Shown here: piece by piece, positions 7,774-64,000 of the stretch | Layout: each line of letters starts with the position of its first letter | How positions within the stretch are numbered: the first letter of the stretch is position 1 | Assembly: GCF_030684315.1 (NCBI RefSeq) | Contig: NC_081367.1 | Span: forward strand, 62,373,414-62,437,413 | Origin: Stegostoma tigrinum | Lineage: Eukaryota | DNA length: 64,000 nt | Reading direction: 5' to 3' | Notes under the pieces: model-generated | Told to the model about the DNA's origin: nothing | Database searches by the model: none | Seen by the model: the letters and a program-made list of their open reading frames with translations, nothing else | Translations under genes and position numbers: made by a program

Positions 7774-9442
7774 CTGTGAAAATATCAAAAAGAAACACAT
7801 TTTAAGTCAGTACTTTTATTATGATCAAAGTCTGTCTTCAAAATATCTATCAAGAAGTTGGGGAATAGATTTTCAATTTATGGCCACAGCTCAAAATTGC
7901 ATTAAATATTAGCCACCTCGCCCAAGTCAATTTCCATTGAATTCAATAGAAAGTAAAATCAGTGGGTTTCTATAATGGACGCCTGACTCACAAGTTGGAA
8001 GGTGACATCTTGCTATACTATTCCTTCGTACATGAGCTCACACACACAGCCTTCACACTTATGAACCATAAATGTGTCCAAATATTCAATTTAAGACAAT
8101 ATTCTCATTTAACAGTGCATTCCTTAATTTATTGAAGACCCCAATCAATGTTAAATAACAGAAGTGTGATTAGTAAAAGAATTCTTTCAGGTGTTAGCCA
8201 ACATGATTGATTACAATACTTTGTACACTGTCATCTATCTAAATTGGACAGTTTTAGGAACTATTTCAGAAATTAAAATCAAATGTTGGTACAAGGACAA
8301 CAATTTTTTTTTCCTTTCAGAATGGCAATATCAAGGCCTCAGGTTAGATACCAACCAAAGCATTGACTTAACAATATCTCTCAATGCAATCCACAAAACC
8401 AATCTGAGAAATAATAAGAACTACCGATACTGGAGCCAGCGATAACACAGTGCGGAGCTGGAAGAACATAGCAGGCCAGGCAGCATCAGAGGAACAGAAA
8501 AGTTGATGTTTCATGTCGGGACCCTCTTTTTTGCCCATGGCAGAAAATGAGTGAGATTAGCATTTGTTGCCAATTTGGACTGCAGGCTAATTCCATGAAT
8601 TGAAACTAAGAATTTCATCAAAGTAATTGTACCAAGAACTCTAAGAAGGAAGGCATTCATCCAATTTCCTTGCATTGGGCTTGAATACGGAGTCCACCAG
8701 TGCTATTTCACCTTGTCCCTGAACCCCCTCGCACATAAAGGGCAAATTGTTTTTCACAGGCATTTTCATCCTTTTGTTTTAAGTATCATTAGATTGCAGA
8801 TACCAAAGGGCAACATTGTTCATGCAATGTAGAATGCAGGATTGATTTATTTAAATTTTCCTACGTTCAGTTTCATAGCTTTGATGAATAAATTTCTTTC
8901 TTCCCATTCTTTTCCACCCACTTGTGAAAATACAACTCCAAGTCAGATGGTTGCTGTCCAATATCTCAGCTTGTGACATTTTGATTTGTTTATTTGACAT
9001 GGTGTATGTGCTAGTTGCAAGAATGTGAAACCCATCCTTCCAACATTACCTCACGCAGCCTACTAGCAAGGCCCATGCCCCAACTCTGGGCAATATTTAT
9101 TTTTCTAACCTGCTTCTAGAATGATTATTGTTGAACTCTTGACATTGCTTCAGTTTGATTAACGCAGCTGAAACAGATGATCAGACTGAATCATTTTTTG
9201 TCAATATGGCTTAGGCTGACTTCTGAATGCAAGAAACAGAAGTCCATACAAAATTTTACACCAGCTCAACATTTAATGTATTGCTACCTTAGCTCCATTT
9301 ACCTGTTGATGCTCTGCATTCCTTAAAAGTTCTGTCTGCATAAAAAATACTTGCCTCAATCTTCAAGTGCCACTACTACCCTTGACCTCCATACTATTGA
9401 GAAAGTTGATAACAACTTCATTTTAAGTGCTTCACTACTTAC

Positions 9443-9734
9443 CACTGGTATTCCAAAAGTCCCCACCGTCCTGGCAATTGCTATGGATTGTGTTGAGCCA
9501 GCATCAGCAATAAGTGCATGCACCGAAGAACCTTCATGACATTTCAAAAGTGTAACGTTTTCCTCTTGACCATTAATGATTGTCAGGGCTGCTCTAAGAG
9601 CCAATGCTGGTGTGGCACAGGAATCATAAATTTTAAAACCCAGAGTGATATTGGGAAGAAGTATTGCATCATTATTAATTTCTTCAATAGCAAAAATCAT
9701 CAACTGAGCCCAGCGAAAAGCTCTCAGGTTAAAA
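9443..9734 (-). pseudogene. Gene A exon 2
   Basis: Acceptor tttcccacag; FRWAQLMIFAIEEINN..LLPNITLGFKIYDSC; donor GTG|GTAAGT; 292 bp. Confidence 0.93.
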
Positions 9735-10204
9735 CTGTGGGAAACACAAAAGTTTTGAATCTGAAAATGCACATAGTTAAATATATTTATGTTGCAGGGC
9801 CTGACATGCACTAAGCATACAGCAACACATTCTGAGCACATGCATTTATACAATTGCAATTGCCCAAGTCAAAAAAAAATGTTGGATGGACTACATACTG
9901 AGAAAAAATACATAAATATGGTAACTTATTATTTTACTAAATTAGATAGGAATTTTCAACTATCTGAAATAAATTTAAATTAGTAATAGGTACAAGTGAA
10001 ATGTACAGTCATTGTAAGTTGTCTACATTGGTAACAGAACCTCTTTTAGCCCCAACCTTTCCCAAACCCGCAAAAGCTTTGACCACTGTCTTTTTTGTGC
10101 ATCTTTCCCCTTCTTTGTCTTCAGCCAGTTTGGACTACTCCCTGGAATTTCTTTTCACAGTCCCTTTGTTTTCTCAATAACATAATCAGGTAGACTTCAC
10201 TCAC

Positions 10205-10407
10205 TCTATACATTTTGGACTATCAGGTAGAGTTTGGTAAGAAGTCTTTGGAAGCTCTCTTTGGTAATGAATGGGGAAAACTCCACCGATGATGATGTCT
10301 CCATCTTGTGAAAGCACTGGCAAATTAAACCTTCCTTGAAGTTTACAACTTTGATCGTCTTCGGCAAATGTAGAAGCCAATAAAATAAGCAAACACAACA
10401 AATACAT
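10205..10407 (-). pseudogene. Gene A exon 1 (signal peptide, start of Venus flytrap domain)
   Basis: MYLLCLLILLASTFA signal peptide, DGDIIIGGVFPIH motif; phase-2 donor GA|GTGAGT. Confidence 0.92.
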
Positions 10408-10454
10408 TGCCGTTATTGTCTCTTGCTGGTATTTGGCATCAGAGCAGGTTTCTC

Positions 10455-10462
10455 TTCTTATA
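10455..10462 (-). promoter_or_regulatory. Candidate TATA-like box of gene A
   Basis: TATAAGAA about 50 nt upstream of the ATG; position comparable to the gene B TATA box. Confidence 0.4.
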
Positions 10463-11937
10463 TTGGATTATTATTCACAAATGAGAAAAACATAATTAAA
10501 GTACCAGAAATCCCACATGACTTTCAGGTTTAGTAACCCCTACAGCAGAGTCTGATTATCATGTGGTCAAGTCTAGGCTAGTTTAACTTTGCTCACATTA
10601 CCTTGAGTCCTTGGAAAACAATTTTGGAGATCTGTTATGACAATTAATAGTAATAATATGAGAATTGATCTTCCAAGATATCCAACCCGGACTATACAAT
10701 TGGTAGACATAGAAAAACAAATGATTTTGGTAAGTAACTAATGCATTTAACATAGTTTGTGAAGTGTGTTTACTTTTTTTGATAATGTTCTTCCCTTGTT
10801 TCTGTCTTTCATGTTAAGTGTAAACATGAAGAATCAGGGAAGAGAAATTCAATTTAGCTTAGGGGATGCCAGAAACAAAAAATATTGTCAAGTAGCAAAT
10901 AATCTGAATCTTCTGAACAAATTATTCCTGAAGGTCTTGATTTTTCCTGCCTAAAACATGGCTGAATACATTGGCAGAACTCTGTCTTAATATTGATGAA
11001 TCTTTGTGACCATTAAATAATGGACAGGCTTCCGGGAGTCTGGAGATGGATTGTTTGCCTCAGAAATCCACTGATCTGCTCTTTAAGTCACAATATTTTC
11101 ATAAATAGTTCAATTTAGTTTCTCAACAATTGTCATGACCCTCATAAAAAAAAGAGTGTGCCAGGAATCAAGCTCCACCTTTTTCAAACATTTTCTCTTA
11201 CTCTCTTTTTATCAGTTTTCAAAATATTCCCATTCATTTGGTTTACCGTTAATCTTTGCCTGCTTTTATTTCCTTTAATTTGATGTTATTAATTAACTTC
11301 CTCAATTAATCTTGGTTTGTTTCTGCACTTTTTGTTGAGAGTCATGAAAGATTTTCTTAAATATCTGCAATTGTTCATCAACCGAGTTTGCTGTGAAACT
11401 TCTTTTCTGGTCCACTCGCATCAACATTGCGTTCATTACTTTCAAAGTTCCTTTATTTAATTTTAGTGCTGTTGTTTCCAAATTAATTTACTCACTCTCA
11501 ATCTCAAAGTTAAATTCAACCATTTTATGGTTGCTATTTCCAGGAAGGTGTTTTACTCTAAGATCATTTAACACATTACACACTACCAGGCGTAAAATAG
11601 TCTGATCCCTGTTTATATCCATGATATATTCTTCCAGGAAACTCTCCTAAACATGCTCAATCAATTCAGAAATAGTAAAAACTGCAGATGCTGGAGTCAG
11701 AGATAACACAGTGTGAAGCTGGAGGAACACAACAGGTCAGGCAGCATCAGAGGAGCAGGAAAGTTGACATGTTGGGTTGGGAATCTTCTCCAGAACCATC
11801 ACGCTCTATCAATTCTTCTTCATGCCTACATCAGGCAGTTCAATTTAGCAATCTATATGGAGACTAAATTCGCCCTTGATTAATGTGCAACCTTTCATAC
11901 GTATCTTAATTATCTATTGATTGACTCTCTGTCAGAG

Positions 11938-12772: not shown

Positions 12773-12789
12773 ACTACAGTATCGTTAGA

Positions 12790-14420
12790 GTTAGAAGACC
12801 AATAGACTGCTCCTGTCATGTTTTCCTTTCCTTGTTATTTCTTAAACCCATATGGATTTGACATCTTACAATCCAAGAACATTCCTCGCAATCATATTTA
12901 TTTAATCTTGTACTAACTAAACTAGCTATCACCCTTTCCTTCTTGCCTATTCTTTCAAATATTCACAAAAGCTTGTATATGTAGCTCCCAACAACAGATT
13001 GTTTTTTAGCCATGTCTCTGCTTTGGATATATGATCATATCCATGAACTGCTATTTGTGCTGTTATTCAGAATATAATGTAATTTAAGTGAAATGGAAAT
13101 TAGCTTTACTTTTTAACATTTTTTTCACCTTGTGGCCATATTTGTTGTTAGTCTTTATGTTTGCAAGTTCTTTTCCTTCCTGTCCAACTCTATACTTTCC
13201 TAAATAGCTACTTTACAATACAACCACATCATGTATGCATCTTCTCTCCACAACCCTTTCCATCCCTCTCTATTTTAAATGCCTCACTGCAGCCCATGGT
13301 TTGATTTGCCAAGACACTGGTCCCAGCATGGTTCAAGCAAAGCTCATTCCATCCTAGATAAAACCCAAAAGAACCGCGGATACTACAAAATCAGGAGCAT
13401 AAACAAAGTTGTTGGAAAAGTTCAGCAGGTCTGGCACCATCTGTGAAGGGAAAGCATCATGGATACAAATTTATGTGCTGAGTTACTGTAAACTTACTTA
13501 TGCCACACTGCATTCCACAGGACCTAGAATAAAAATAAACACAGAAGTATGTTATTAAGAATTAATAATAAAGAACAGCCCTGGAAACAGTAATACAGCC
13601 TGTTCTGAGGAAGGGTCACTGGACCTGAAACATTAACTCTGTTTCTTCTTCACAGATGCTGCCAGACCTGCTGAGCTTTTCCTGCAACAATGTTTTTTGT
13701 TCCTTCATTCCATCGCAGTACTGCTATAAATGTTATATGAATAGAAACCCATTCCTCCTGCGCCAATAGTTGTGACCTGTGTTCATCTCCTTGACTTTAT
13801 TTACTCAATGTCATTTTTGCCTATGGCTAAGGTAGTAAACCAGAGATTATTACCTTGGACATTCTGCATTTTACGAATTCATTCAGCAGAACCTCATTTC
13901 TAGTCCTATCGATGCTGTTGATACCAACGTGTGCAAGATGGTAACAGTGACCATCCCTCCCAATCCCAAATTCCTCTCCAGCTCTGAAGAGATGGCCTTA
14001 ATCATGGTGCATGGCAAGCAACACAGCTCACAGCTACAGAGAACAGTATCTATCCCCCTAATTACACTCTCTCCTACCACTACCACATTCCTATTTTTCC
14101 CCCAACTCTCCTCCCCTTGCATTACAATATTACTGTCAGTTCACTCATTCTCCATGCAGTTCCTACTCTCATCCACAAAGCTTGCAAGACTCTCTCAACT
14201 TTGGATAATTGCAGGGGCAGAAGCCCCGTGGATGCTGTTGCATTGGCTCAATGCCTGCCTCACCTGCTGTTAGACTTATCTTGGATCGCAGTGCAAATTT
14301 GAATTATCTAATCAGAGGAGTGTGAATTTCTTTAAGCTGCAATTATTTATAGCGACTGGGTTCACTCTGGATGGTGTCCAAAAGCTCCCACATGCTACAG
14401 CAACAATATATTACTAATAT
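12790..14420 (-). mobile_element. Degraded CR1 5' region including ORF1 esterase
   Basis: NVVVVGESVIRGIDT resembles the GDS esterase block of CR1 ORF1; interrupted by the 13354-13704 insert. Confidence 0.65.
13354..13704. mobile_element. Penelope-derived two-armed element with hammerhead core and internal spacer
   Basis: Inverted arms; CTGAGGA-A-GGGTC..GACCT-GAAA at 13605-13630; TSD tcattccatc at 13344-13353 and 13705-13714. Confidence 0.75.
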
Positions 14421-19600: not shown

Positions 19601-21507
19601 AAACCAGACCACTTTCATGAGTGTAGTGCAAGTTAAAGCTTGATCAAAAAGGAGTAGACAACAATTCAAGCCAGGATGACCAACTACTGGAGAAATAAGG
19701 GACATACTGGCATAGTGAAAGTGTACCAGTGGCACTGGGGTTAACAATGCTTGGCCTGGATGCTGGAAAAATTATAAGAGTGGGGTTGTTGCTGACTGAG
19801 TTGTAATGACTGATGGGAGTTTTTAAGATCAGAGCGCAAGGAGAAAAATGTCAGTGCATACTGCATGTGCACAGGTTTTAAAGTCCAAAGTACAGAAGAG
19901 ACTGTCACCTGGCAATAATCAGCCTAGGATGTGGGACAAACATGTTACATATGAAAATGTACATTAGACCTTGGCCTATTTCTACTCAGAAGCTTGAATA
20001 TGTAGTATCAGCCTGTCCTGTGTCAATGTAATAACTCATCAAATTTATCATGATAAAAGCAGAAAATGCTGGAAATATTCAGCAGGTCATGTGGCATCTT
20101 TGGAAATAGGTGCAGAGTTGACATTTTTGGTCTCTGGCCTTGTATCAGGCTGGGCAAAATAGAAAATGTGATACGTTTTGAGCTAATGAAAGAAGGAGGA
20201 AAACTATGGAAGGGGCTAGGTGTCGAGATGGATAAAAACAAAAGAACAAGTCTAAGGTAGAGCACAATGTGGAAGGGATAAATTGTCAAAAATATTTGTG
20301 GTTTAGCGTTAAAGTGACTGGTAATAGGACAGGTTAAAAAAACAAAATCAACATTTCTTTACAAAATAAGTACTAGTATTAGACTGTTAATGCAGAGACT
20401 CAGATAAGGCTCTGGGGACCTGGGTTCGAATCCAAACAAGTGATGTTACCATTTCTGCACAATGTTCAATCCTCTATAACATTTTCAGGACACTTTCAAT
20501 TACGTCTTTTTCTGGATAGTCTTGCTGCTCTCAGCAAATCACTTCAAGAGGTTCCAAAATGTCAACTTCACCAACATAATTTCTACTTAGCTACTTTACA
20601 AACTTTAATATCATGCTGTGGTCATCTCTAGTCAAAACAGAGAAGCTTATTCCCTGTGGCCTTATTGACAACACAGTCCTATACACTATCATGCATTTGT
20701 TCTGTGGTGATAACTGTCCCCAGAACTACAAGCATTTGCATCTGTGACAGGAATTGGAGAGAATATTCAAAGGTGGACAATGTCACTGTACAATTGGAGG
20801 ATATGGGTTGTGAAATTGGATATGGGAAAGGGTTCAAACATTGGGGGAATTGCATTGTAAGCTCATAACATGCCCTTTTTAATATTCAGTCCTATTCACT
20901 CAATAGCACCAAACTGTTAGGCAAAATACCATGCAAACAAAAAACAATCACTGTGCTTACTGTCATAGGCCATGTTAAATATCAATGCTTCTTTTAAAAT
21001 TTGCACTGCACCAGTTTAGAATTTAACCTTCAGTGTTTAATTTATCTTGTTGTTACTCTGCTGTTCATGTTAAATCAACTATTTTCATTGAAATATTTTA
21101 TTTCACGTCATTCTTTTCATTCCATCTAGTCTGAGATGAAACAAAAATGCATGTTATAGTGCTCGATAGTGCTTTAAATACCGCATGGGCTGATTAATAA
21201 GCTTGTACTTACAACTGCCTCAGGCACCATGTAATGAATCATTTGTCTTTCCATTAACTGCAGATTGACAATAGCACTGTTTAATTGCTCAATAAATCAG
21301 TAACATTCTGTTTAATTGCCTTTATTACAAGTTTAAAACGTGAGTCTGCAGTTTTAAAAATATATAAACTTGAAAGAAACCAGTAAAATACCTGGTATCA
21401 CTAGTCAAAAGCAGACCAAACACCATTTATAATTCACGCGGCTAGTCAATCAGCAACAAATAATTTGACAGGCACAGGAGAATCATGTCTGTTCAGCTAA
21501 CGTTTAT

Positions 21508-23269: not shown

Positions 23270-25880
23270 AGAACGGGACCAGGAAGCTGCACATGGTCAT
23301 GAAGGAGAGATCACATCCGGAGTGAGGTACAACTTGAGTGAATATACAGTTCAAGAAATTTGGTGACAGTGTGGGAATTTGGTGCAGAGGGCAGGAGGTG
23401 CTTTTTACTTGCTTTATTGGTTCATAATTTGTATTATTTTTAACAGGAGAAGTTGAAGTTCAGAATCAACATAAGGAAGAAGAAACATGCTGAGGGAGAA
23501 TGAGATAACCATGGCTGACAAGGGAAGTCAGAGATAGGATAAAACAAAAAAAAGTACAATGTGGTGAAGATGAATGGGTACTGCAGCACAGGGGAGACTT
23601 TACAAACCAGCAGAGCAGAATTTAAAAAAGCAAAAGTGAGGAAATGAAATATGAGGGTGAGCTAGCCAATAATATAAAAGAAGATTGTAAGAGTTATTCT
23701 GATGGACAATGTAAGAGAGAGGCATGTTTGAATATTCGACTACTGGCAGCTGAGGCTGGAGAAGTAGTAATGGGGAACAAAGAAATAGCAGAGGAACTGA
23801 ATAAGTACTTTGCATCAGTCTTCACAGTGGAATACACCAGCATACCACAATTTCACAATTTCAAATTGGTACTTTGGCAGTAAATTTATAGCACAGCACA
23901 ACGTGTAGCTTTTCTGTAATTATGAATATAAACTTGCAGATTGGTGCAGTAATGGATAAGCTTTTGGATGTTAGCACAAATACAAAGCCTCTCTGTATCT
24001 AACCATGCCGGATGTCAGAAGTGCTGCAAAGAAAATAGAAAATGTTGCATTGATATGGCATCCCCCTGACCCTATGACAATAAAGCCAACAGTTAAAATA
24101 AAAATGCTGGAAACATTCAGGCTGTATCTGTGGAGAAGGGAACAGGCTTAATGTTTGATTGTGGTGATTCTTTGTGATTGGGTGCTTAGAGTTGTTACAG
24201 TTTCAATGCAGGACAAGAGGAGAAGAAAGAAGAGTAACAGAAGGAAGACTTGAGATAGAGTTGAAGGCAGGAGAGATTAAAAAGCAAAAAGGCCACAATT
24301 TCAAGAGAATCAGGGGCCAGATGTGAGTGTAGTAGCCAACACTAAGGACATGATGCCGTGGAAGCTGAAAAGTCTAAAGGTGGATAAACCATTTGGGCTG
24401 GACAGGTCTCCCAATGTTCTGATGCATATTGCTGATGAGATTGTGGAGGAATTCATAGTGATCTTTCAGGTATCTCTGGAGTCAGAGAGGGCACCGGAGG
24501 ACTGGAAAATGGCTAATGTAAACCCCTTATTTAGAAGGAGGGAGGGAGGAGGTGGGAAACTTTAGCTGGTTAGATTAACCCTAATCATTATTAAGCATAA
24601 GATGGGCAGTACTTGGTTGTGCTTCGTAAAGTAGGGTTGAGTCAGCATTGCATCATCAAGAGGAGGTCATGTCTGACAAATCTGTTAGAATTCCTTGAGG
24701 AGATATTGATCAAATTAGACAAAGGAGAATCAACAAATGTAGTCTATTTAGATTCCTAGAAGGCATTTGCTGCACAGGAGTCTGTTAAATAAGATAAGGG
24801 CCCATGGTGTAGGGGCAAGGTACTGGCATGGATAGAGCTTTAGCTGACTGGAAGATGTCAGACAGTTGGGACAAAGAGGTCTTTTTGAAGCCAGCAGCCA
24901 GTGACTAGTGGAGTTTCACAGGGATCTATGTTGGGTAAATTATTTACGTGATACATTAACTTTCTAGACAAAGGAACTGAGGACATTATTGCCATGTTTG
25001 CACATAGCACAAAGATAGTGTTGAGGAAGTGGGGAAGTTGTAAGCGGACTTGGACAGGGGTTTTGGACAGTGAGCAACAAGTTGCAGATGGAATGCAATG
25101 TGGGAAAATGTGAGGTTATGTAATTTGGTAGGAAGAATAGAGATGTAGAATTTATTTTTCTAAATGGGGAGAGGCTTTGGACCTGTGACAATGGGACTCA
25201 GAAGTCCCAGTTCAGGATTATCTTAAGGTTAACATGTAGGTACAATTGGCAGGTAGGAAGGCAAATGCAATGTTAACATTCATTTCAAGAGGTCAAAAAT
25301 AGAAGAGAGGAAGTGTACTGCTGATATTGTATAGGGCTCAAGTCAGTCTACATTTGAATATTGTGGGCAGTATTGGGCCCCATATTGAAGGAAGGATGTG
25401 CTGTCATTAGTGGGAGTCAAGGGGAGGTTCAGAAGAATGATCCAGGGGAAAAAAGCTTGTCATATGAGGAGCAGTTGTGAACTCAGGATCTGTACGCAAT
25501 GAGGTTAAGGGGAATTTCATTGAACCTTACAGAATGCTGTGAGGCATGGATAGAGTGGACATAGAGAAGGGAATTTGACTAGGAGGAGAGACTAGGACCC
25601 AGAGTGAAGGGGCAACTCGTAAGAACTGATACAGGAAGGAATTCCTTTGGCCCGAGGGTGATGAATCGATGAAACCTATTGCCGCAGAAGGATGTGGAGG
25701 CCAAGCGATTGAGTATATTTAAGACAGAGATGGCTAGGTTCTTGGTTAGTAAGAGATCAAGAGTTATGGGGAGAAGGCAGGAAAATAGGGTTGAGAAACA
25801 TATCAGCCATAACTGAATGGTGGAGCACACTTGATGGACTGGATGGCCTAATTCTGCTTCTATATCTTATGGTGTATGGA
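23270..25880 (+). mobile_element. Degraded CR1 LINE, interrupted at 23863-24292
   Basis: AEELNKYFASVFT, PEDWKMANVNPLF and downstream RT remnants; tcttatgg tail. Confidence 0.88.
23863..24292 (+). repeat. Copy of gene B intron 1 segment 30283-30713
   Basis: Colinear, high-identity direct repeat; flanked by ccacaatttc at 23845-23854 and 24293-24302. Confidence 0.9.
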
Positions 25881-26095
25881 TATCAGGTAATTCAGATTTG
25901 GGTGGGCACCTGACTCCAGGACCATAAGTGCCCATTCCCCAAAAACAGAAACCCCACCAAGAAATTTCACATACCTAGGTGCCTCTTCCTGATTACCATC
26001 AACATATCCTTTTTGGCAGCAGCTCCAACTATTTTTATTCATTCTCTGGAATTCACTACTTAAAATTTCCTGTCTCTGTATATCTCATAATTTAA

Positions 26096-27925
26096 GATAA
26101 CAAAGTGTGGGGTTGGATGAGCACAGCAAGCCAAGCAGCATCTTAGGAGCACAAAAGCTGACTTTTCGGGCCTAGACCCTTCATCAGAAAAGGGGGATGG
26201 GGAGAAGGTTCTGAAATAAATAGGGAGAGAGGGGGAGGCAGACCGAAGATGGATAGAGGAGAAGGTAGGTGGAGAGGAGAGTATGGGTGGGGAGGTAGGG
26301 AGGGGATAGGTCAGTCCGGGGAGGACAGGCAGGTCAAGGGGGCGGGATGAGGTTAGTAGGTAGGAAATGGAGGTGCGGCTTGAGATGGGAGGAGGTGATA
26401 GGTGAGAGGAAGAACAGGTTAGGCAGGCGGGGACGAGCTGGGCTGGTTTTGGGATGCAGTGGCGGGTGGAGAGATTTTGAAGCTGGTGAAATCCACAGTG
26501 ATACCATTGGGCTGCAGGGTTCCCAAGAGGAATATGAGTTGCTGTTCCTGCAACCTACGGGTGTCATCATTATGGCACTGCAGGAGGCTCAGGATGTGCA
26601 TGTCGTGTAAGGAATGGGAGGGGGAGTTGAAATGGTTCGCAACTGGGAGATGCAGTTGTTTATTGCGAACCAAGCGTAGGTGTTCTGCAAAGTGGTCCCC
26701 AAGCCTCCGCTTGATTTTCCCAATGTAGAGGAAGCCACACCGTGTACAGCGGATGCAGTATACCACGTTGGCGGATGTGCAGGTGAACATCTGCTTGATG
26801 TGGAAAGTCATCTCGCGGCCTAGGATGGGGGTGAGGGAGGAGGTGTGGGGGCAAGTGTAGCACTTCTTGCGGTTGCAGGGGAAGGTGCCGGGTGTGGTGG
26901 GGTTGGAGGGGAGTGTGGAGCGAACAAGGGAGTCACGGAGAGAGTGGTCTCTCCGAAAGGCAGACAAGGGTGGGGTGGGAAAAAATGTCTTTGGTGGTGG
27001 GGTCAGATTGTAGATGGCGGAAGTGTCGGAGGATGATGCATTGTATCCGGAGGTTGGTGGGGTGGTATGTGAGGACTAGGGGGATTCTCTTTTGGCGGTT
27101 ATTGCGAGGGTGGGATATGAAGGATGAGGTGCGCCAAATGCTGGAGACATGGTCGAGGGTGTTCTCGACCACTGTGAGGGGAGTGTTGTGGCCCTTGAAG
27201 AATGACGACATCTGGGTGTGCGGGAGTGGAATGCTTCATCCTGGGATCAGATGCGGCAGAGACATAGGAATTGGGAATAAGGGAGAGAATTTTTGCAGGA
27301 AGGTGCGGGGGAGGAGGTGTATTCCAGGTAGCTGTGGGAGTCGGTGGGCTTGAAATGGACATCGGTCTGTAGGTGGTTGCCGGAGATGGAGACAGAAAGG
27401 TCCAGGAAGGTAAGGGATGTGTTGGAGATGGTCCAGGTGAACTTGAGGTTGGGGTGGAAGGTGTTGGTGAAGTGGATGAATGGTTTGAGCTCTGATGGGA
27501 GCATGAGGCGGAGCCGATACAGTCATCAATGTAACGGAGGAAGTGGTGACGTTTTGGGCCAGTGTAGGTGCAAAAGAGGGACTATTCCACATAACCTACA
27601 AAGAGGCAGGCTTAGCTTGGGCCCATGCAGGTACCCATGGCCGCCCCCTTAGTCTGTAGGAAGTGGGAGGAATCAAAAGAGAAGTTGTTGAGGATGAGGA
27701 CAAGTTCGGCTAGGCGGATGAGGGTGTTGGTGGGGGGGGACTGGTCGGGTCTGCGGGACAGGAAGAAGCGGGCTGTGAGGGATGAGGTGCGGGAAATGTA
27801 GGAGACACGGTTGAGGGTGTTCTCGACCACTGCGGGTTGGAAGTTGCGGCCCTTGAAGAATGAGGACATCTGGGATGTCTGGGGCCAAGCTATGCCTGCC
27901 TCTTTGTAGGTTATGTGGAACAGGA
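26096..27925 (-). mobile_element. Penelope-like element (Neptune-like), 5'-truncated, RT plus GIY-YIG endonuclease
   Basis: QTKGAAMG, FLRYIDD, HPNLKFT, FLDL RT motifs; Cys linker CNRKKCYTC; NVVYCIRC..LYIG..R..EH GIY-YIG; frameshifted; hammerhead core at the 3' end. Confidence 0.92.
26157..26190 (-). ncRNA. Minimal hammerhead ribozyme motif in the Penelope 3' terminal repeat
   Basis: CUGAUGA-A-GGGU(CUAG)GCCC-GAAA-A-GUC; one substitution relative to the GAAACGUC copy at 61387. Confidence 0.65.
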
Positions 27926-28242
27926 ATGTGGAACATTTCAAAGTAGATACTAATTATCTTAACATTTCCAGTAGTGCTATACAACTTCACTAATGCACAA
28001 AAGGCTGCTCCAGGGAACCTCCTGTCCAGAAGGATAAAGTAAAATAAGCATCTAGTTTTTCCACATATATAGTTAATTCTGTCCGTCAATATAGATGACA
28101 CCACAGCTTGAGATTAAGCCGACTTTAATTGCACTTTCTATACTGGCTGAATATTCTCAAGGGCAGTTAGGGTTATATTTCATTCCCCTGACTTTGGGGA
28201 AATGTCATGATTTCATTGTGTTTAGCTCAAATTGTTGCTCTG

Positions 28243-30282: not shown

Positions 30283-30713
30283 AAATTGGTACTTTGGCAG
30301 GAAGTTTATAGCACAGCACAACGTGTAGCTTTTCTGTAATTGTGAATATAAACTTGCAGATTGGTGCAGAAATGGATAAGCTTTTGGATGTTAGCAAAAG
30401 TACAAAGCTTCCCCGTATCTAACCATGCCGGATCTCAGAAGTGCTGCAAAGAAAGATAGAAAATGTTGCACTGATGTGGCAAACCCCTGATCCCATGACA
30501 ATAAAGCCTACAGTTAAAATAAAAATGCTGGAAATATTCAAGCAGTATCTATGGAGAGAGGAACAGGCTTAATGTTTGATTGTGGTGATTCTTTGTGATT
30601 GGGTGCTTAGAGTTGTTACAGTTTCAATGCAGAACAAGAGGAGAAGAAAGAAGAGTACCAGAAGGAAGACTTGAGATAGAGTTGAAGGCAGGAGAGATTA
30701 AAAAGCAAAAAGG
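30283..30713 (+). repeat. Donor segment of the 23863-24292 duplication
   Basis: Same sequence without flanking duplication, in gene B intron 1. Confidence 0.88.
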
Positions 30714-38980: not shown

Positions 38981-39926
38981 AATGTGGAACTGGTTTCGCT
39001 CCTTTGGACTTTAGGTATGAAGGTACCTCTGCGAGAAAGTAAGTTTGTCAATATTGGGCGAGGATTGGGATTTGATTTGTTTGTAACTGCCCCTTGACTG
39101 AAAAGAATCTCAACAATGCACATGAAGAGGAAGTATTTGGGGGCATCAAAGATTTAGCTTTCAGGAAATGAAAGATGGTTGCATTGTTTTGCTGATCCTT
39201 AATAAAATAATGTTTCGTGGACAGCTGGAGTATTATGTCCAAATCTGGGCATTATGTTTTTGGGAGGATAGCTAGGAGATATTTTAGAACAAGAAAACAT
39301 TTAACGGCAATGAGACTCTTCAGTTTTTTGGAATGGCTCAGAGCAAAAAGATTCAGGAGAAGACAATTTAGGAGGGGCATGCAAAATGAAGAGGGGTTTT
39401 AGTAAAATAAAAATGGAGAAACTGTTTCCACTGGCAATGTGGTCATTAATCAGAAGGCACAGATTTAAGATAGTGACAAAAAACTGCAGATGCCAGAATC
39501 CAAGGTAGACAAACAGGAGGCTGGAAGAATACAGCAATCCAGGCAGCATCTGGAGTAAAGGAGCAGTCAATGATTCAGATGTTACCATTCTTCAGTAGTC
39601 CAGATTTAAGATAATTGACAAAAGGACCAGAGATAACATGAGGAAATAAAATAAGCAGTGAGTTGTAAGGATCTGGGTTACATTGCCCAAAAAAGGTATT
39701 GGAAGCTGATTCAATAATAATATCCAAAATGACATTGGAAACTGGAAAAAGAAGAGCAAAGTTACGACTATGGGGAAATAGCAGAGAAACAGGGTCAACT
39801 GAATTATTTTATCATGGAGCAACACAGACATTATGTGCTAAATGGTCTTTCAATTGTAGTACACAGTGATTCTATGAATAGGTTAATCTATGCTGCATTG
39901 CTAAATCCATTCTTGGTTTCCTCTAG

Positions 39927-40763: not shown

Positions 40764-42019
40764 GTAAGAGCTATAGGACTCTGAAAAAATTGACATTTTA
40801 ATGTGAGGATATTAATATCCATCTGATATTTTCTTGACTCCCCGTTATGTTGTTGTTTTTCTCACAACTATGTTTTACTGATGATTTACTGCATCCCTTT
40901 TGGTAAGCCTGCGTCACAGAGCAAGTCAAGCCCAATATTATCTAAGTTGGCTAAGTTGGTCTCTCCTGAGTAGTAGCGATGTTAAAACAAGTCACTGGTC
41001 TTTTGGGTTGGTGAGGTGAAAAATAATGAACCAGGATTTCTTACTGCATTTCTCAAGGGAAATAAACTTCATCTGTGAACATTAGATGAGATTAGAATAG
41101 CCTTATCCTTAAGGATTCACACCTCCAGCTGAAAATATCCAGTGGGTTCAAAAGTGACATATGGAGGTCAATTTTTAGCCATATTTTTAAAAGACAAAGG
41201 GAGAAAAAGCAACAAATGACCCATCTGTGATTTCTATCTGGTAAAAGCAAAATATTGCAGATGCTGGAAATCTAAAATAAACACAGAACATGCTGGGTAA
41301 ACTCAGCTGGCCTGGCAGTGTTTGTGGGGAGAGGAATAGAGTTAACCTTTCAAGTCCAATATGATTCTTCTTCAGAACTGCTGACTATCTGCTTGCTGCT
41401 AGTCAGCCAATCTTCTATCCATTCAAGTATATCACTTGATACACTGTGAGCCATTATTTTTATCAATAACTTTTGGTATGGCCTCTTAATAAATGCCTTC
41501 TGGAAATCTAATACATCCTCTTTCATTCACAATACATAATACTTCCTCAAATAACTCTAATAGATTGTCAAAATATGATTTTCCTTTCATAAAACCGTGT
41601 TGATTCCTCCTGATTATGCTGAACTTTTCAAAGTGCCTGGCTATACTGCTATGACAGATGTTAAGCTAAATGGCCTGTAGTTTCCTGCTTTCTATCTCTC
41701 TCTCCTTTCTAGATAAAGGTGTTAAATTTGCTACTTGCCAATCTATTTGAATCGTCCCCCATTCTAAGGAATTTTGGATAAGAATGGGAGAGATTTTCAT
41801 TTTTACCACTTGGGCAGAGAAAGTCAAGCTACAGGATGAAATTCTTAACATACCTTTGGCTTTGTCAATGTATAACAGCTGATTTATATTTTGATCAGGT
41901 ACAGTATCTTAGACATGGTGCTTCTTCTATTAATGTTACTGTATTTGTGAATATATCATAAATGCTGATGCCTAAATACTGAAACATGGCTGTTAATCTG
42001 TTCTCTAATCTTTCCATAG

Positions 42020-42247: not shown

Positions 42248-43459
42248 GTAAGTTGAGACAATTGTTGTTTGGCTGTACAGTAACCAGTATGATTAATTGA
42301 TGGATATTGCTTTCATTACCTGTGATAGCCATCTGAATCTTCCCAACCTTGACTGCTTCATTAATGCCTTTAGCTGGTATGGCCTTTACATAATTCCAGT
42401 ATCCCTTTGAATAAAAAAAGACACAGAAGAACAGTGGATGCTGGAAATCAGAAACAAAAGCAAATCTTACTGGAAAATCTCAACAGGCCTGGCAACATCT
42501 CTCCACATATGCTGCCAGACATGCTAAGCTTTCCCAGCAATTTTTTGTTTTCATTCCAGTGTAACATCAATGTGATTGGTCCCCATTTATTACCTTGAAA
42601 TGGTCCAACCAGATCCTTATCGAATTTTTAAAGCAACTAAAGATGGAAAATAATTATAACATTAACCTGCATGTGAACACCACCTGAAACACAAGCATGA
42701 CCAAAGAAGACCATAAGACCAGAAGATACAGGATCAGAATTAGGCCATTCAGACCACCAGCTCTGCTTCACTATTCATTCATAGCTAACACGTTTCCCTC
42801 AATCTCATTTTCTGCCTTCTTCCTATAAGCCTTAATCCTTTGACTAGTTGAGAACTTATCCATCTCTATTTTAAATGTACTTAATGACTTGGCCTCCACA
42901 GCCCTCTTAGGCAATGAGTTCCACAGCCTCACCACCCTTTGGCTGAATTCAACCTCATGTCAGTTCCAAATGAGCATCCCTTCACTCTGAGGATTTACCC
43001 TCAGGTCTTAGACTCCCCCACTAGTGGAAGCAACTTCTCCACATCCACTCTATTTGGGCCTCTCATCATCTTTCTAAACTCCATCAAGTGCCGACGCAGA
43101 GTGCACAACCGTTCTTCATATGACAAGCTCTTTGTCCCCAAAATCATTCTTGTAAACTTCCTCGGGATGTCGTCTACAGCCAGCACATCTTTCCTTAGAT
43201 GCAGGACCCAAAACTATGAACAATATTCCAAATGCAGTCTGATCAGAGCCTTAGACAGCCTCTGCAATACACCCCTGTTCTTGTGACCTGAACCTCCTGA
43301 AGTGAATTCTAATATTATATTTGTCTTCCAAATTTTCAACTGAACCTGCATATTAATCTTAAGAGAACCCTGAACCAGGACTACCAAGATTGTTTGTGCT
43401 TCAGATTTAGAGGCTTTCTTCTATCACAGTCTATGGCCCTATTCTTCCAACCAAAGTGC

Positions 43460-51007: not shown

Positions 51008-51215
51008 AATACAAATGGAAAGAATTACAGATGCTGTAAATCAGGAATGAAAACAAAAGTTTCTGGAAAAGCTCAGCAGGTCTGGCAGCATCTGTGAAGA
51101 AAAAAATCAGTGGTAACGTTTTGGGCCCAGTGACTTCCTGAGGAAAGGTCACGAGACCTGAAGCATTAACTCTGATTTTTCACTTACAGACGCTGCCAGA
51201 CCTGCTGAGCTTTTC
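51008..51215. mobile_element. Palindromic Penelope-derived element centred on hammerhead cores
   Basis: Inverted arms 51063-51135 and 51140-51218; 15-bp TSD cagttaatggggtgg at 50993-51007 and 51216-51230. Confidence 0.8.
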
Positions 51216-52633
51216 CAGTTAATGGGGTGGCCTGGCAGTGATAAGGTACCATATCCTTACTGCCACCAATAAATTAAGTTGCGGTCAGAAACCCCACAAT
51301 TGACCTTGCAGACACCCTACTCTTTAAGGCCTTTAAGCTATCAAGCAATGGCTGATTTAAGAACCTCTTCACCCCAGCACCTGGATTAAATGTATTCCTG
51401 AGCAGCGAGAAAATTGGCAGCCCTCTTGGCAAGGACATGGATGGGGTTGAAAGGAGTGACCATTGAAAGCCACATGCAAGTCCATGCTTTCGATCTTCCT
51501 GACCCCCTTCTCTTTATGACAGACACTCTGTGAAAATGCCCCAATCTTACCATCTTGGTTGTTGATTGAGGACTTTGTTCTTCAGAAGCAGTGCTGCTAC
51601 TTGCCTTATCTGCCACTCTCTGAATGGCTGGCAGCTTCAACAGTACAGACTTTGCTGAAATTCTCTGAGAAGCCACATGAGTCACCATTTCAAAGCCTGA
51701 TAGGTATTGATCCAACGAGCTTTCCAACTGATGGTGTCCCATACAATATGACACATGCCCTCACTTTTTAACTCAAAAATGGAACATCCAAGCCTCCAAC
51801 CCTCCAAAGCTCTCCCAGTTCATCCATCCAGTTAACATTTAGTTGTGCTAATATCTAATTGTGCTGAGCTGTGATCTCCTTTGGCTGAACAATAGGAAGA
51901 GCTCAGCCAATGTCTTACCCCATTACCACAAACTCTGATTCCAATTCTAATTTTAGTCACTCTTTCAAGCTAAAGTAGATAGTTCACCAAAACAACAAAA
52001 AGAGCAGTTGCTGGATAAGCTCAACAGGTCTGGTAGCATCTGTGGACAGAAATTGGAGTTAATGTTTTGAGTTGAGTGACTCTTCCTCAGGCCGGACTGT
52101 TCACCATGCTATTGATGCACAACTACTCTTGACCAAATACACTCTCCAAAGTAGAGATCCATTTTGCCAGCCTCCATCTGTACCTCAATCCCTCTACTGC
52201 TAAAGCACATTACATGCTTTTTATCACTTCAAAAATTTACTGCTCCAATGAAACCCCAAGCAGTATCCACTCTAAGCTGCAGCTCATTCAAATCTTTTAC
52301 GCTCATTCTGACCAAGTCTAAATTCAAGAAATCCCTTTCCTCTCCAAGATACATTTGCTCTAGACCTCCTAAAACCTTCAATGTAATGCTGTGATTCTTA
52401 AGTTTAGATCTTTTTGTCATCTTAGCCTTCCTTTTGTTCCTCTGAAATATTTTCCCACTATTGTCCCTTACAGCACACATTCCCAGTCACAATACTCTTA
52501 TGCTCTAACCTCTTGTGCAAACAACTCCATTACTTTTTCCACCAAAGGAAGACTGGCCACAAAGAGTATAAGCTTCACTTTGAGGAATTCCCTTCTTCAA
52601 ACCCTTCTGGCTCTTTTGCTCTCTCACTTTTCT

Positions 52634-53814: not shown

Positions 53815-54050
53815 CTTAAAAGCAAAATATTGTGCACTCTGGAAATCTGAAATAAAAATATTGAAGCGTTGGAGAAACTTTGCAGGCCTGGCAATGTCTG
53901 TGGAAAGAGAAACAGAATTAATGTTTCATGCCCAGTATCACTTTTCTTTGGCAGAGTTCCTAAGAAGTGCCAAATTGGTTGCAAAACACTAACACTGTTT
54001 GTCTTTCCACAGATATTACCAGACTCCTGAGGTTCTAAAGCACCCTCTAC
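53815..54050. mobile_element. Degraded palindromic Penelope-derived element in the gene B 3' region
   Basis: Arms ggcaatgtctgtggaaagagaaacag and ctgtttgtctttccacagatattacc. Confidence 0.65.
53851..53856 (+). terminator. Candidate polyadenylation signal of gene B (inside a repeat)
   Basis: First AATAAA after the stop codon, about 105 nt downstream. Confidence 0.4.
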
Positions 54051-54291
54051 TCTTAGACCAAATTTGAATATTGAGAGCAGTTGGTAATCTGATCACATAT
54101 GGCATTCCAAAGCTTGTTAATTTTCTTCATTGGACTCTGAGCAAACTACTGCTCAAATTTGCAAATTGCCACACATAAATTTTTTAACTGAACCAATGCA
54201 ATGAGCAATGTTTTTTGAAATGTACATTGCTTCTTTATTTCAAAATATCCCTTGATATAATTAAGAATGGTAATCCGGTGCAGTTTTATTC

Positions 54292-54390
54292 ATAAATGAA
54301 AATAGGAAGAGTTGGAAAATTCAACAAGTCTGGCAGCATCTGTGGAGAGAGAAACAGAGTTAACGTTTCGAGTCTGAAATGACTTCTTCA
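54292..54390 (-). mobile_element. Short hammerhead-core Penelope derivative
   Basis: CTGAAGA-AGTC..GACT-C-GAAACGTT; 12-bp TSD gcagttttattc at 54280-54291 and 54391-54402. Confidence 0.8.
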
Positions 54391-58018: not shown

Positions 58019-58149
58019 GCTCTGCACTCAACTCAGTGCAAAAACTGAGGAATAGGTCCTGGATGTTTCTCACATTATTGTCTGTAACTATTCTGGATTA
58101 ACTACCCGATAATATGTAGGGTTTTATTAACATTATTTACGTACATAAA

Positions 58150-61374: not shown

Positions 61375-61478
61375 AGCAAACCTGTTCTGATGAAGGGTCT
61401 AGGCCCGAAACGTCAGCTTTTGTGCTCCTAAGATGCTGCTCGGCCTGCTGTGTTCATCCAGCTTCACACTTTGTTATC
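61375..61478 (+). mobile_element. 104-bp Penelope 3'-end insertion
   Basis: Matches the reverse complement of 26096-26187; TSD aaggcaaat at 61366-61374 and 61479-61487. Confidence 0.88.
61384..61417 (+). ncRNA. Minimal type I hammerhead ribozyme motif
   Basis: GUU-CUGAUGA-A-GGGU(CUAG)GCCC-GAAAC-GUC-AGC: intact core, stem II, ACGU palindrome in place of stem III, 3-bp stem I. Confidence 0.72.
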
Positions 61479-61779
61479 AAGGCAAATGGTATGTTGGCTG
61501 TCAGAGTGAGAGAATTCAAGGACATGAGCATGGATGTCCTTCTGCAAAGAACAGGGCCTTATCAGCCACAATTGAATGGTGAAGTAGGTGTGATGAGCTG
61601 AATGACCTAATTTTGCCCTGATATCTCACGGATCTTATGGTCTTAGTGAGACTACAACTGAAGCATTTGTGGCATTTTTGATCTCCTTTTCTGAGAAAGG
61701 ATGTTCATACCATGGAAGGAGTGCAACAAAGGTCTACCAGCCAGATTCCTGGTGGACAGGCCTGATGAGAGACTGGATC

Positions 61780-62289
61780 AGAATTAGAGTTAGACTTAGA
61801 ATCAGCTTTACTGTCACATGTACTCAAACCACTTAGAGTGCCATTTTAGGTGCAAAGGAACTAAGGTGCAGATTCTTAAGTCCAAATTCTTACGGAAAAA
61901 GACAATTAGAAAAATAAAGAAATAAAAAGTTTAGAATAACAGTTCTTCCACTAGTCCACTCTGGGTCTTGACTCTAGACCATACCGAGATTCACCTCAGG
62001 GACCTTGAGGCCAGGGGACTGCTCTGCAATCATCTTGTGGCATGAGATCCATGCTGAGGCCACAATGGATTATTAAGAGATTGTCATGCCAGGCAGGGAG
62101 ACTGCAATGCCAGTTCACGGAGTGACCACCACACCAGGCAGGGAGATAACCACGATGAGCTGAGAGATCACTACACTACGCTGAGGGTAAGAATTCAGGA
62201 CATCACCTAGAAAAAAGAAAGGGAAACAAAGAAAAGAAATGGAAGAAGTGGACCAGTTCCAGCTGAGGACTCCTACTCCAGTGCCATCT
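61780..62289 (-). mobile_element. Unclassified 510-bp non-coding retroposon
   Basis: TSD tggatc at 61774-61779 and 62290-62295; 3' end gagtacatgtgacagtaaa plus short-repeat tail; related fragment at about 2750-2940. Confidence 0.55.
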
Positions 62290-62361
62290 TGGATCGAATG
62301 GGAATATATTTACTGGAGTTTGGAAGAGTTAGAAGGGGGGCATGGGGAGTCCCATAGAAAT

Positions 62362-62677
62362 GGGCGGCACGGTGGCTCAGTGGTTAGCACTGCAGACTGA
62401 CAGCGCCAGGGACTCGTGTTCGATTCTAGCCTCGGACAACTGTCTGTACAGAGTTTGCACATTCTCTCCGTGTCTGCGTAGGTTTCCTTCGGGTGCTCCG
62501 GTTTCCTCCCATAGTCCAAAGATGTGCAGGCTAGGTGGATTGGCCAAGCTAAATTGCCTGTAGTGTGCAGGGGTGTGTGGGTTATGGGGGATGGGTGTGG
62601 GTGGAATGCTCCAAGAGGCGGTGTGGACTTGTTGGGCCAAAGGGCCTGTTTCCACACTGTAGGGAATCTAATCTAAT
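62362..62677 (+). mobile_element. Full-length HE1-type SINE
   Basis: A and B boxes, V-domain, (AATCT)n tail, TSD catagaaat at 62353-62361 and 62678-62686. Confidence 0.93.
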
Positions 62678-64000
62678 CATAGAAATTTATAAAGTTCTAA
62701 CAGGATTCAACAGACTAAATGCATAAATGGTGCTTCCAAAGACCAGAACGCCCAACCAGGTCGCAGAGTTTAAGAATACAATTTCAAGGTAGGGAATTTA
62801 AATCTGATGTGAGGAGAAATTTCTTCACCATGAGAGTGGTGAATCTATGACATTCTCTGCCATAGAAATCAGTTGAGCCAAAACATTGAATCTTTTCAAG
62901 AAGGGGTGTGATATAGTTCTTAAGGTGAAGAGAATCAAAGGATATGGGGTGAAAGTGTGAACAGGATACTGAGTTGGATGATCAACCATAATCACGTTGA
63001 ATAGTGGAGCAGACTAGAACGGCCAAATAGCCTTTTCCTGTTCCTGTTTTCTATGTTTCCAGGCTTCATTAATTAACTTTCATAGCTAAACAATTATATC
63101 TCACCCAACAACTCTAATAATTATAACTCAAATATTGCTGCTGTTGAAAATCTGAAATAAAAACAGAAAATACTGGCTCAGCATGTCTAGCAGTATCTGT
63201 AGCAGGAAACAGAATTAAAATTCTTGTTGAATATGGCTCTATGAGGAAGTACTTTGTATCTCTATGTGTTATTCCAGCATTTTGGTCTATAAAATTATGT
63301 GATTTAAACTAATACCTAATTATTTCTTCTTAAGTTAATAATTCAAAGAAACAACTTGCATTGATATTGTGGCTTTTGGATGGTACTATGCCTCAAAGCA
63401 CTTTACTGCCGCTGATGTACCTTTGAGGTATAGCCACTGATGTAATGTAGCAAACATTCCGTCAATGATACAAGTGCTTGGGAAGTAATTTGTTCACAGC
63501 AAGATCCCACAAACAGCCATATAATACACTTGAAAACCCTGTTACTTGATCAACCAGCATCCCCTGTCTGATTGTATCCGAACTCACATTCAGGGATGGC
63601 TTTAAATTTCCATCTACCCTATCTAAACCATTAAATCCTTTAAAAGTGAAGCATTGAGCTGCAAGAGAAGGAAAATTTGTACAGGTGTGGGCCATTCACC
63701 TTTTTGAATGTCTTTATCCAGTTAACTAGGTTTTGGGAAATCCACATATTTCCTCTGATTAAGTGCTATCATTCCATTTCCTTGATATAAAAGCCTATAA
63801 ATCCAAAATTGACTGGCAGTCTCAACACCATTTTGGGTGAGTGCTCTGTTTTATGCGAAGGAGTGTTTCTGTACATCATTGTTGAATGGCTTGGGTCAAA
63901 TCTTAACATTTTGTTTCCATTTTTTGGACTCCCCCAGAAACTCCTTTAATTATTTCGCAGATAGTAGGAAATGCAGATGCTGGAGAATCTGAGACAACAA

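Follow-up and report, generated by a model that had tools for sequence, protein, structure and literature searches.

What are the many short, ribozyme-bearing inserts in this 64-kb stretch of Stegostoma tigrinum DNA (hereafter the window; positions are counted from its first letter), and do they form a mobile family of their own or represent the ends of longer elements? We consider it probable that the inserts are dead-on-arrival, truncated end-pieces of several endonuclease-positive Penelope-like element (PLE) families, likely made by those families' own proteins, with a stop favored just upstream of an uncleaved hammerhead.

Short inserts in the window

A profile built from copies within the window matched 24 arms at 20 loci, a density of about one piece per 3.2 kb, and the reversed window, used as a control, gave no profile matches. 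Training copies match such a profile by construction; the matches at 24097, 30521, and 32765 fall outside the training set. An earlier note on this DNA had reported related inserts at 16 loci, and all 16 were matched by a blastn query from another locus. The loci at 30515, 24090, and 32745 come in addition to that list, and the inverted-pair structure of four loci had also been overlooked. The anatomy of the inserts agrees with that of a published PLE end: a minimal hammerhead, about 90-100 nt, an optional tail of 30-35 nt, and, in some cases, head-to-head inverted copies. Monomers were oriented 11 versus 3, which is not significant (P = 0.057).

The long element and its relation to the inserts

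A broken, 5'-truncated endonuclease-positive PLE lies at 26096..27926 on the reverse strand, comprising a reverse transcriptase (RT) remnant, a C-x4-C-x2-C linker (in the 26419-27075 frame), a GIY-YIG domain, a pyrimidine-rich repeat region of about 230 nt, and a hammerhead (C3 at 26187). The element ends without a tail, its 5' end holds rearranged pieces (27768-27881, direct; 27879-27926, inverted), and a search for its target-site duplication (TSD) found none. The earlier description of this element as coding does not hold, as it contains stops and frameshifts and its 5' half is missing; it is a dead copy of its family. In tblastn, it matched the whale shark sequence P0001 at 68-84%, for which Pfam gave RVT_1 and GIY-YIG, both with an E of about 9e-5, the RVT_1 match falling short of the curated cut-off; the GIY-YIG of the window element itself gave E 0.054. 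Relatives at about 50% are ~890 aa long, and a search for a full-length shark relative found none. The linker was present in 101 of 123 relatives longer than 800 aa, and, judged by this CX2-5CxxC motif, the element is of the Neptune/Nematis type.

As had been proposed, the copy at 61375 corresponds to the 3' end of this element (61381-61478 is 92% identical to 26096-26193). An in-phase ATG was found at +46..+53 from C3 in 10 of 13 translated arms; when the module was compared as an ORF start with 242 protein N-termini, there was no significant match, the lone match being a C-terminal read-through of P0002. The long element has a possible splice acceptor upstream of C3, at a distance of 24 nt (cf. 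D. virilis), which was considered as a source of the short copies and rejected because the 61375 copy lacks those 24 nt.

The inserts had been treated as a single family, a view not borne out by their pairwise identities of 61-93% and their division into two groups, of which group B accounts for about half of the loci. Identity to the long element reaches 87-92% for 61375 and 37833 only and is 62-76% for the other arms compared. That the inserts were retrotransposed and derive from the end of a PLE is upheld. A distinct non-autonomous family, also part of the earlier claim, is not what the pieces of the 26096 family indicate: save for a few junction bases, these group A pieces lie entirely within the sequence of the long element, and depth does not fall upstream of the hammerhead. 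For group B, a true non-autonomous master may exist; no long partner was found in the window, and the group B motif had no matches in viral contigs or in metagenome contigs.

Insert ends, inverted pairs, and target-site duplications

Seven monomers are bounded by TSDs. In group A, the copy at 61375..61478 (forward strand; no tail; TSD of 9, 61366/61479) starts at -12 from C3 and has the sole fully intact hammerhead. Two group A-like, tailed copies on the reverse strand start at -6 (11668..11799; TSD of 16 with two mismatches; core 8/11) and -5 (39473..39600; TSD of 13; core 10/11). The group B monomers, all on the reverse strand, start at -9 (41241..41384; tail; TSD of 7; core 11/11 but damaged stems), -8 (51990..52098; no tail; TSD of 8; core 10/11), and +1 (54292..54390; no tail; TSD of 12; shortened stem II), the last reaching a core of 11/11 only when the C of the TSD is counted. 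The seventh, at 37833..37920 (forward strand; group A; tail; TSD of 11), is without a hammerhead, and a short unrelated stretch precedes homology from about 55-60 nt downstream of C3.

Thus, six of the seven begin within -12..+1 nt of core base C3, and none begins at the cut site, which lies at about +27 to +31. A truncation model of constant hazard, corrected for scanning, gave this bunching a P of about 0.01 in a conservative set (6/12) and a P of at most 5e-5 for all arms (12/21), in which the offsets of arms without a TSD were set by eye. The few bases upstream of stem I vary between copies. Truncation occurred downstream of the hammerhead in 37833, 42401, and the left arm of 13354, while the 5' end lies upstream of it in the 26096 element and probably also in 20050, 30515, and 32765. 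The portions of the PLE literature available to us describe heavy truncation, and we found no preferred 5' stop at the hammerhead edge in them. At the other end, the TSD-bounded monomers fall into two classes, ending at +91/+99/+100 or +122/+125/+134 from C3; these end points are separated by about 31-35 nt, in agreement with the two RT start sites of PLEs, between which lies a tail of 30-40 bp.

Head-to-head inverted pairs occupy 4 of the 20 loci, the other 16 being without a clear second arm, and in all four the tail is on the left arm and on one arm only. The arms of the pair at 51008..51215 (TSD of 15; right arm tail-less) join within the first core box (about 51135-51145), and those at 42401..42552 (TSD of 8) join downstream of the hammerhead position, the hammerhead itself being gone. 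At 13354..13704 (TSD of 10), about 150 nt of unassigned sequence separates the arms, the right one of which has a core of 11/11 (C3 at 13605), and in the decayed pair at 53817..54060 (no significant TSD) the arms join just upstream of both hammerheads. These structures, to which no single strand applies, agree with the "inverted 5'-truncated copy" and "dual min-HHRs in opposite strands" of the published descriptions, as far as the sections available to us go.

The remaining copies lie, with one exception, on the reverse strand. They include a group A-like, tailed monomer whose first core box is gone (8409..8535; no significant TSD), a group B, tailed monomer in which homology stops at about C3 (55180..55314; no significant TSD), and a decayed group B copy with a tail (63122..63240), possibly a fifth inverted pair reaching about 63290, for which the signal is weak. 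Further copies are found at 30515..30605 (old and decayed), at 24090..24185, a duplicate of the 30515 copy that rides in a 430 bp segment 94% identical to 30283-30713, and, on the forward strand, at 32745..32850 (very decayed; E about 1e-4). Two copies do not fit the earlier characterization of all inserts as tiny: the tail end of a group A-like copy at 63960..64000 leaves the window, and the decayed group B copy at 20052..20150 (no significant TSD, and none nearby) probably continues upstream into pyrimidine-rich sequence (pyrimidines make up 0.71 of 150 nt, for a background tail of 0.007).

The variable TSD lengths given in the earlier note were confirmed letter for letter in 10 of 10 cases (7-16 bp, including the 16-mer with two mismatches). 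De novo searches, whose boxes were drawn with the claimed boundaries already in hand, found an exact duplication of at least 8 nt at 9 of 19 loci, compared to 4.1% of 1,490 random position pairs; by itself, the 7-mer at 41234 has a P of 0.14. A farther search, up to 3 kb at nine loci, returned just 8-10-mers, which is the chance expectation over such a span. TSD AT content was 0.62 versus 0.60, showing no clear AT-richness.

State of the hammerhead

The inserts do carry a minimal hammerhead of the type reported by Cervera and de la Pena, though a decayed one. The statement that many copies retain its pattern stands for 61387, 54391, 41375, and the long element and fails for 13 of the 16 listed loci. 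The invariant core, whose 11 bases are also the majority state across 14 aligned arms, was complete in 5 of 18 hand-anchored arms, a set that leaves out the 32765 arm (2/11 core bases), which could not be anchored; 37833 and 42401 have no hammerhead whatever. Among the 18 anchored arms, 61387 is the only one keeping the core, stem II, and the C-G palindrome. Its minimal type I hammerhead (61384..61417, forward strand) consists of a 3 bp stem I, a core box (61387-61393), an extra A, a 4 bp stem II, GAAA (61407-61410), and a palindromic ACGU replacing helix III, with a predicted cut after 61414; the extra base lies between 9 and 10.1, and G10.1-C11.1 and a palindromic 15.2-16.2 are also present. 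This palindrome occurs in 3 of 18 arms, its losses being mainly CpG-type changes.

In the stems, 61% of cells were paired, compared to 20-41% with slid partners. The covariation score was reached by 348 of 500 shuffles in an alignment with several misaligned rows, in which two pairs of stem II changed on both sides. An Rfam search up to E 1 gave no matches. Folding predicts an inactive hairpin for the monomer: the predicted active dimer has -6.5 kcal/mol versus -11.4 per monomer for the inactive hairpin and -38.0 for the extended duplex, all without tertiary contacts. Whole modules did not fold better than their shuffles (z -0.22 to 1.16, five modules), and the 40 nt hammerhead had a z of -1.32.

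Read depth

In the public contig sets X1 and X9, the 26096 family had depths of a similar order on the hammerhead and upstream of it; depth here is not copy number and covers group A only. A query for RNA data sets containing 26050-27100 listed none, which has no bearing on expression. In X1, it was 16.7M and 26.4M over 26122-26183, 10.1-25.5M over 26184-26431, and 2.7-13.7M over the ORF; in X9, there was no depth cliff at the group A hammerhead edge. In a further set (X16), among the 24 loose-end rows listed of 3,316, position 26191, which lies 4 nt upstream of C3, has mixed loose ends from at least 17 contigs, which fits common short copies. In a bisulfite run (X21), reads of the module are lost to conversion, which rules out a comparison with the DNA upstream. 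This run comprises 1,938 million letters and reached a depth of about 25,000 on the G-rich strand; for an assumed genome size of 3-4 Gb, the upstream region would then be present in roughly 10^5 copies.

Origin of the inserts

If the inserts are truncated end-pieces, the PLE protein would nick the target, as in the Poseidon element studied by Frangieh 2024, assuming that this transfers to the Neptune/Nematis type. The cDNA would, again as in that element, start inside the RNA at either of two sites, which in the shark copies would lie downstream of C3 by about 90-100 or 122-135 nt, and would pass the ribozyme cut site, and a cDNA that crosses this site implies an uncleaved template. It would then halt on reaching the 5' foot of the hairpin, and the likeliest reason is that many templates end there through (i) a transcription start or (ii) 5' trimming to the hairpin or a bound protein. 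Priming from both target ends would join two cDNAs head to head, and decay would follow insertion, with most copies losing the ability to form a ribozyme. It is possible, if doubtful, that the hammerhead 5' edge is a physical end of the PLE template (a start or trim site), in which case reverse transcription from 90-135 nt downstream would yield stereotyped, SINE-sized inserts from an ordinary PLE RNA, the ribozyme would serve as a structural cap or protein-binding boundary and not as a cutter, and some group B copies might now be independent masters.

Against truncation, a short dedicated master would also give a sharp 5' boundary, a group B long partner was seen neither in the window nor in the contig searches, and the loose ends in X16 fit common short copies. 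In line with the earlier note, at least group B could be a non-autonomous, SINE-like PLE derivative, in which a 100-145 nt master beginning at the hammerhead has its own transcription and is copied in trans by PLE protein. The starts of six of the seven TSD-bounded monomers within 13 nt of one another, bunched though not identical, favor such a master, as does the lack of a long partner seen for group B, and the literature sections available to us describe PLE terminal repeats as enough for mobilization in trans and mention putatively non-autonomous Chlamys PLEs. However, group A has an equal boundary even though its long element is abundant and depth continues upstream, and the bases just before stem I differ among copies. 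Furthermore, some group B copies appear to extend further upstream, no B box was present in 17 arms, the A box had two loose matches on the antisense strand only, and no tRNA was found in the inserts. We regard this origin as unlikely.

Monomers could also stem from non-LTR retrozymes, whose tandem hammerhead repeats give unit RNAs that are circularized and reverse transcribed, and PLE-derived retrozymes with dispersed monomers are described, including in one cartilaginous fish, in the parts available to us of Li et al. 2026 (bioRxiv 10.64898/2026.07.22.740005). This is very improbable here: the window has no tandem array (a repeat scan gave one row, a 7-bp repeat), the cut site marks neither end of any copy, circular permutation was absent, the tail and the inverted pairs are hallmarks of PLE insertion, and the active dimer is predicted to be far less stable than the inactive hairpin or extended duplex. 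Least probable, with hardly any chance of being correct, is an origin from MITE-like DNA transposons, or from longer insertions reduced by deletion, with an incidental hammerhead. Four loci are indeed palindromic, but most copies are single arms, paired arms are unequal, and what they carry is end sequence of an RT element; TSDs of 7 to 16, unlike those of a DNA transposon in their variable length, largely refute this origin, and matching TSDs that flank a short piece directly argue against later deletion.

Comparison with known systems

The following comparisons hold for the parts of the cited sources available to us, except for Frangieh 2024. Canonical truncated insertions of endonuclease-positive PLEs (Craig 2021, PMC8557442; Arkhipova 2013, PMC3846280; Goubert 2022, PMC8969392) have a pseudo-LTR, a 30-40 bp tail, and an inverted 5'-truncated copy. 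With these, the shark copies share an RT partner with C-terminal GIY-YIG, variable TSDs, a tail that is optional and confined to one arm, short palindromes at head-to-head junctions, and captured sequence between inverted ends. In contrast, most shark copies are only 90-145 nt, with 5' ends bunched at the hammerhead edge. The object class is already described, and the shared start point is the sole residue that this PLE literature leaves unexplained. Palindromic copies could be misfiled as MITEs, and we advise annotating the inserts as PLE ends. The role of the hammerhead in endonuclease-positive PLEs is stated as unclear (Craig 2021, PMC8557442). A stop at the ribozyme's upstream edge and not at its cut site offers a direct test of the motif as a template 5' end; if that reading is true, shark genomes would form a natural record of PLE template ends on a very large scale.

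The minimal hammerheads of metazoan PLEs (Cervera and de la Pena 2014, PMC4209133) share the core boxes, G10.1-C11.1, a short helix I, the extra base between 9 and 10.1, and the palindromic 15.2-16.2, whereas the shark helix II has 4-5 bp and the text names no shark. That work found mostly single motifs "probably related to truncated PLEs" and opposite-strand pairs 100-700 bp apart. Non-LTR retrozymes (Cervera and de la Pena 2020, PMC7229834; Li, Clavereau and Pollet 2026, bioRxiv 10.64898/2026.07.22.740005) are likewise short and non-coding, with a type I hammerhead, kinship to PLE terminal repeats, and dispersed monomers, but they are defined by head-to-tail tandem units, of which the shark window has none.

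PAc, a Poseidon element of Anolis carolinensis (Frangieh 2024, PMC11167929), differs in that the CX2-5CxxC linker of Neptune/Nematis, present in the shark element, is missing in Penelope/Poseidon, and in that the conserved shark ATG, only a candidate ORF start, lies about 46-53 nt downstream of C3, outside the core box. PAc mainly uses RNA that is uncleaved, and in vitro it does not require cleavage. The shark copies resemble it in their two 3' end points downstream of the hammerhead and, as we interpret them, in an uncleaved template and priming from both target strands.

Short Penelope-like ends and the long element

All 16 loci listed in an earlier note were matched by a query taken from a different locus. 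A profile search recovered 24 arms (single module copies) at 20 loci, with none in the reversed window; these comprise the 16 listed loci, a longer Penelope-like element (PLE), and three new loci at 24090, 30515, and 32745, of which the 24090 and 30515 copies represent a single event duplicated within a ~430 bp segment. Most counts apply to this 64-kb window only. The inserts are real. Their description as Penelope-derived and hammerhead-bearing holds, but that of one dense family is weaker than stated, as the copies divide into two groups, with several subfamilies, at identities of 61–93%. Only 61375 (92%) and 37833 (87%), both of group A, are close to the long element. All 10 claimed target-site duplications (TSDs) were present exactly as described, and a de novo search, which left out the 63960 locus since it runs off the window, found an exact duplication of at least 8 nt at 9 of 19 loci versus 4.1% of 1,490 random pairs. 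Across the whole window, single-arm copies numbered 11 on the minus strand and 3 on the plus strand (P = 0.057). The segment at 23856–24292 (437 bp) lies within a LINE fragment, with an 11 bp duplication on either side (23845/24293). It shares 94% identity with 30283–30713, 6.4 kb away, where no such duplication occurs, and looks like local DNA that was copied to a new site together with the old PLE end at its centre.

The long element (26096–27926, minus strand) matches residues 20–462 of P0001, a whale shark relative of its protein, at 68–84% in two frames. Among named relatives of the retroelement protein, those of whale shark (85%) and zebra shark (81%) come closest, which makes a carpet shark the likely host of this vertebrate DNA. 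To call it coding was too generous: given its stops and frameshifts, and a match (P0001) that spans only the second half of the ~890 aa full-length relatives, it is a dead, 5′-truncated copy. Two rearranged pieces occur at its 5′ end. This patchwork (27768–27926) includes a 105 bp piece only 83% identical to 27112–27216, and thus derived from another copy, as well as a 44 bp piece in inverted orientation that shares 93% identity with 27582–27625; its structure suggests template switching. The hammerhead core is preceded, 24 nt upstream, by a polypyrimidine tract (26211–26240, minus strand) that ends in AG and resembles a splice acceptor; for Penelope of D. virilis, an intron is described as ending at helix I (Cervera and de la Pena 2014, PMC4209133).

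Hammerhead integrity and 5′ ends

The hammerhead at 61387 has both core boxes, the extra A, and G10.1-C11.1, while its helix III is a palindrome of four bases for which pairing is possible only between two molecules; this matches the minimal architecture as outlined by Cervera and de la Pena 2014 (PMC4209133). Many copies had been thought to retain the core. Among 18 hand-anchored arms, however, all 11 invariant core bases are kept in 5. The palindrome survives in only two of the five, 61387 and 54391, and stem II is shortened in the latter, so that a single copy (61387) is intact as judged from its sequence. In 14 aligned arms, the proposed stems were paired in 61% of cells versus 20–41% when slid, and stem covariation was not above the shuffle control (348/500). 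The intact motif is predicted to form an inactive hairpin at −11.4 kcal/mol, and its active dimer is predicted at −6.5 kcal/mol by a model that leaves out tertiary contacts. The predicted inactive fold fits both the low activity reported for minimal hammerheads (Cervera and de la Pena 2014, PMC4209133) and the protein-assisted cleavage of PAc, the Poseidon element of Anolis carolinensis (Frangieh 2024, PMC11167929).

Of the seven TSD-bounded monomers, six have their 5′ ends at −12, −9, −8, −6, −5, and +1 relative to core base C3, whereas 37833 begins only past the hammerhead, on its downstream side. The cut site lies at about +27 to +31, and no monomer of the seven starts there. Under a constant-hazard model corrected for the post hoc choice of window, this bunching gave P ~0.01 in a conservative set (6/12) and P ≤5e-5 across all arms (12/21), the offsets of arms lacking a TSD being placed by eye. 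Because the DNA upstream of 20050, 30515 and its duplicate, and 32765 is pyrimidine-rich (fraction 0.66–0.72; background tail 0.005–0.03), as in the long element (0.81), these copies probably extend further upstream than the hammerhead edge; the fraction upstream of the six TSD-bounded monomers that start near C3 was 0.37–0.64. Neither a clustering of 5′ ends at the edge of the hammerhead nor these shark families turned up in searches of the open literature, which took in neither Repbase nor Dfam.

3′ ends and inverted pairs

The 3′ ends of TSD-bounded monomers lie at +91, +99, +100 or +122, +125, +134 from C3, and these two classes correspond to the absence or presence of an optional 30–40 bp PLE tail, as described in Craig 2021 (PMC8557442), Arkhipova 2013 (PMC3846280), and Goubert 2022 (PMC8969392). 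In PAc, the tail has been mapped to the interval between two internal start sites of RT (Frangieh 2024, PMC11167929). Head-to-head pairs occur at four loci (13354, 42401, 51008, and 53815), with a tail on the left arm only. At 51008, the arms join at a short palindrome within the first core box and, as they are unequal, we infer that two cDNAs joined by microhomology fit better than one self-copying cDNA. Between the inverted arms of the 13354 locus, inside its TSD, lie ~150 nt of AT-rich DNA (13453–13600), for which the rest of the window holds no good match and which may be captured host DNA or an upstream part of a group B element.

Truncated copies or non-autonomous units

The earlier note had also proposed that the inserts are non-autonomous units, a reading now weaker than stated: group A shows no depth drop at the hammerhead edge, and no tandem units were present in the window, no tRNA was found by ARAGORN, and no B box was found in the arms. 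For group A, contigs from public runs were placed on 26060–26960. Depth in X1 was 16.7M and 26.4M over 26122–26183, 10.1–25.5M upstream, and 2.7–13.7M over the ORF; the same regions in X9 gave 0.29M and 4.8M, 1.0–3.4M, and 0.56–4.2M. As these values are not copy numbers, we read them only as showing that long group A copies are abundant. In X16, which is from another organism and RNA only by guess, at least 17 contigs depart at 26191 and at least 23 at 26095, among the 24 of 3,316 loose-end rows listed and with mixed flanks, in agreement with both boundaries. Group B, the second group, had no match among viral or metagenome contigs and may have a separate non-autonomous master.

Copy ends, TSDs, and homology are directly observed. 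In the route we propose, a PLE protein most likely nicks the target, and cDNA would begin at one of two internal sites, by analogy with PAc, a member of a different clade. Synthesis would pass through the uncleaved hammerhead and halt where its hairpin begins on the upstream side, either (i) because the template ends there or (ii) because the structure stops or shields the cDNA. Inverted pairs would arise when both target ends serve as primers.

Genes and other repeats

Two class C GPCR (V2R-type) genes with 7tm_3 and ANF_receptor matches lie in divergent orientation (~9868 to 334, minus strand; ~33311–53745, plus strand) and are ~47–61% identical in the compared exons, with a 162-base N gap immediately ahead of the last exon of the second. 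The inverted pair at 53817–54060 starts ~70 bp past the stop codon of this second gene (53745), in whose 3′ UTR it could fold into a hairpin. An unrelated dispersed repeat family of 200–350 bp occurs at 21513–21825, 44073–44385, 58149–59399, and 62362–62678, including a 356 bp inverted pair (58149–58504/59044–59399; 94%); ARAGORN detects no tRNA gene.

Relation to known Penelope-like elements

The long element carries a C-x4-C-x2-C linker ahead of GIY-YIG, which is described as marking Neptune and Nematis and as absent from Penelope/Poseidon (Craig 2021, PMC8557442); judged by this linker, it would resemble the former and differ from the latter. The four head-to-head pairs repeat an inverted arrangement already reported for PLEs, and single and opposite-strand minimal hammerheads have been tied to truncated PLEs (Cervera and de la Pena 2014, PMC4209133). 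Li et al. 2026 (bioRxiv 10.64898/2026.07.22.740005) describe PLE-derived retrozymes and monomers in vertebrates, including one cartilaginous fish, and most PLE insertions as 5′-truncated with one terminal repeat; their supplements may list these shark families. The inserts are mostly ordinary, a kind of object already known.
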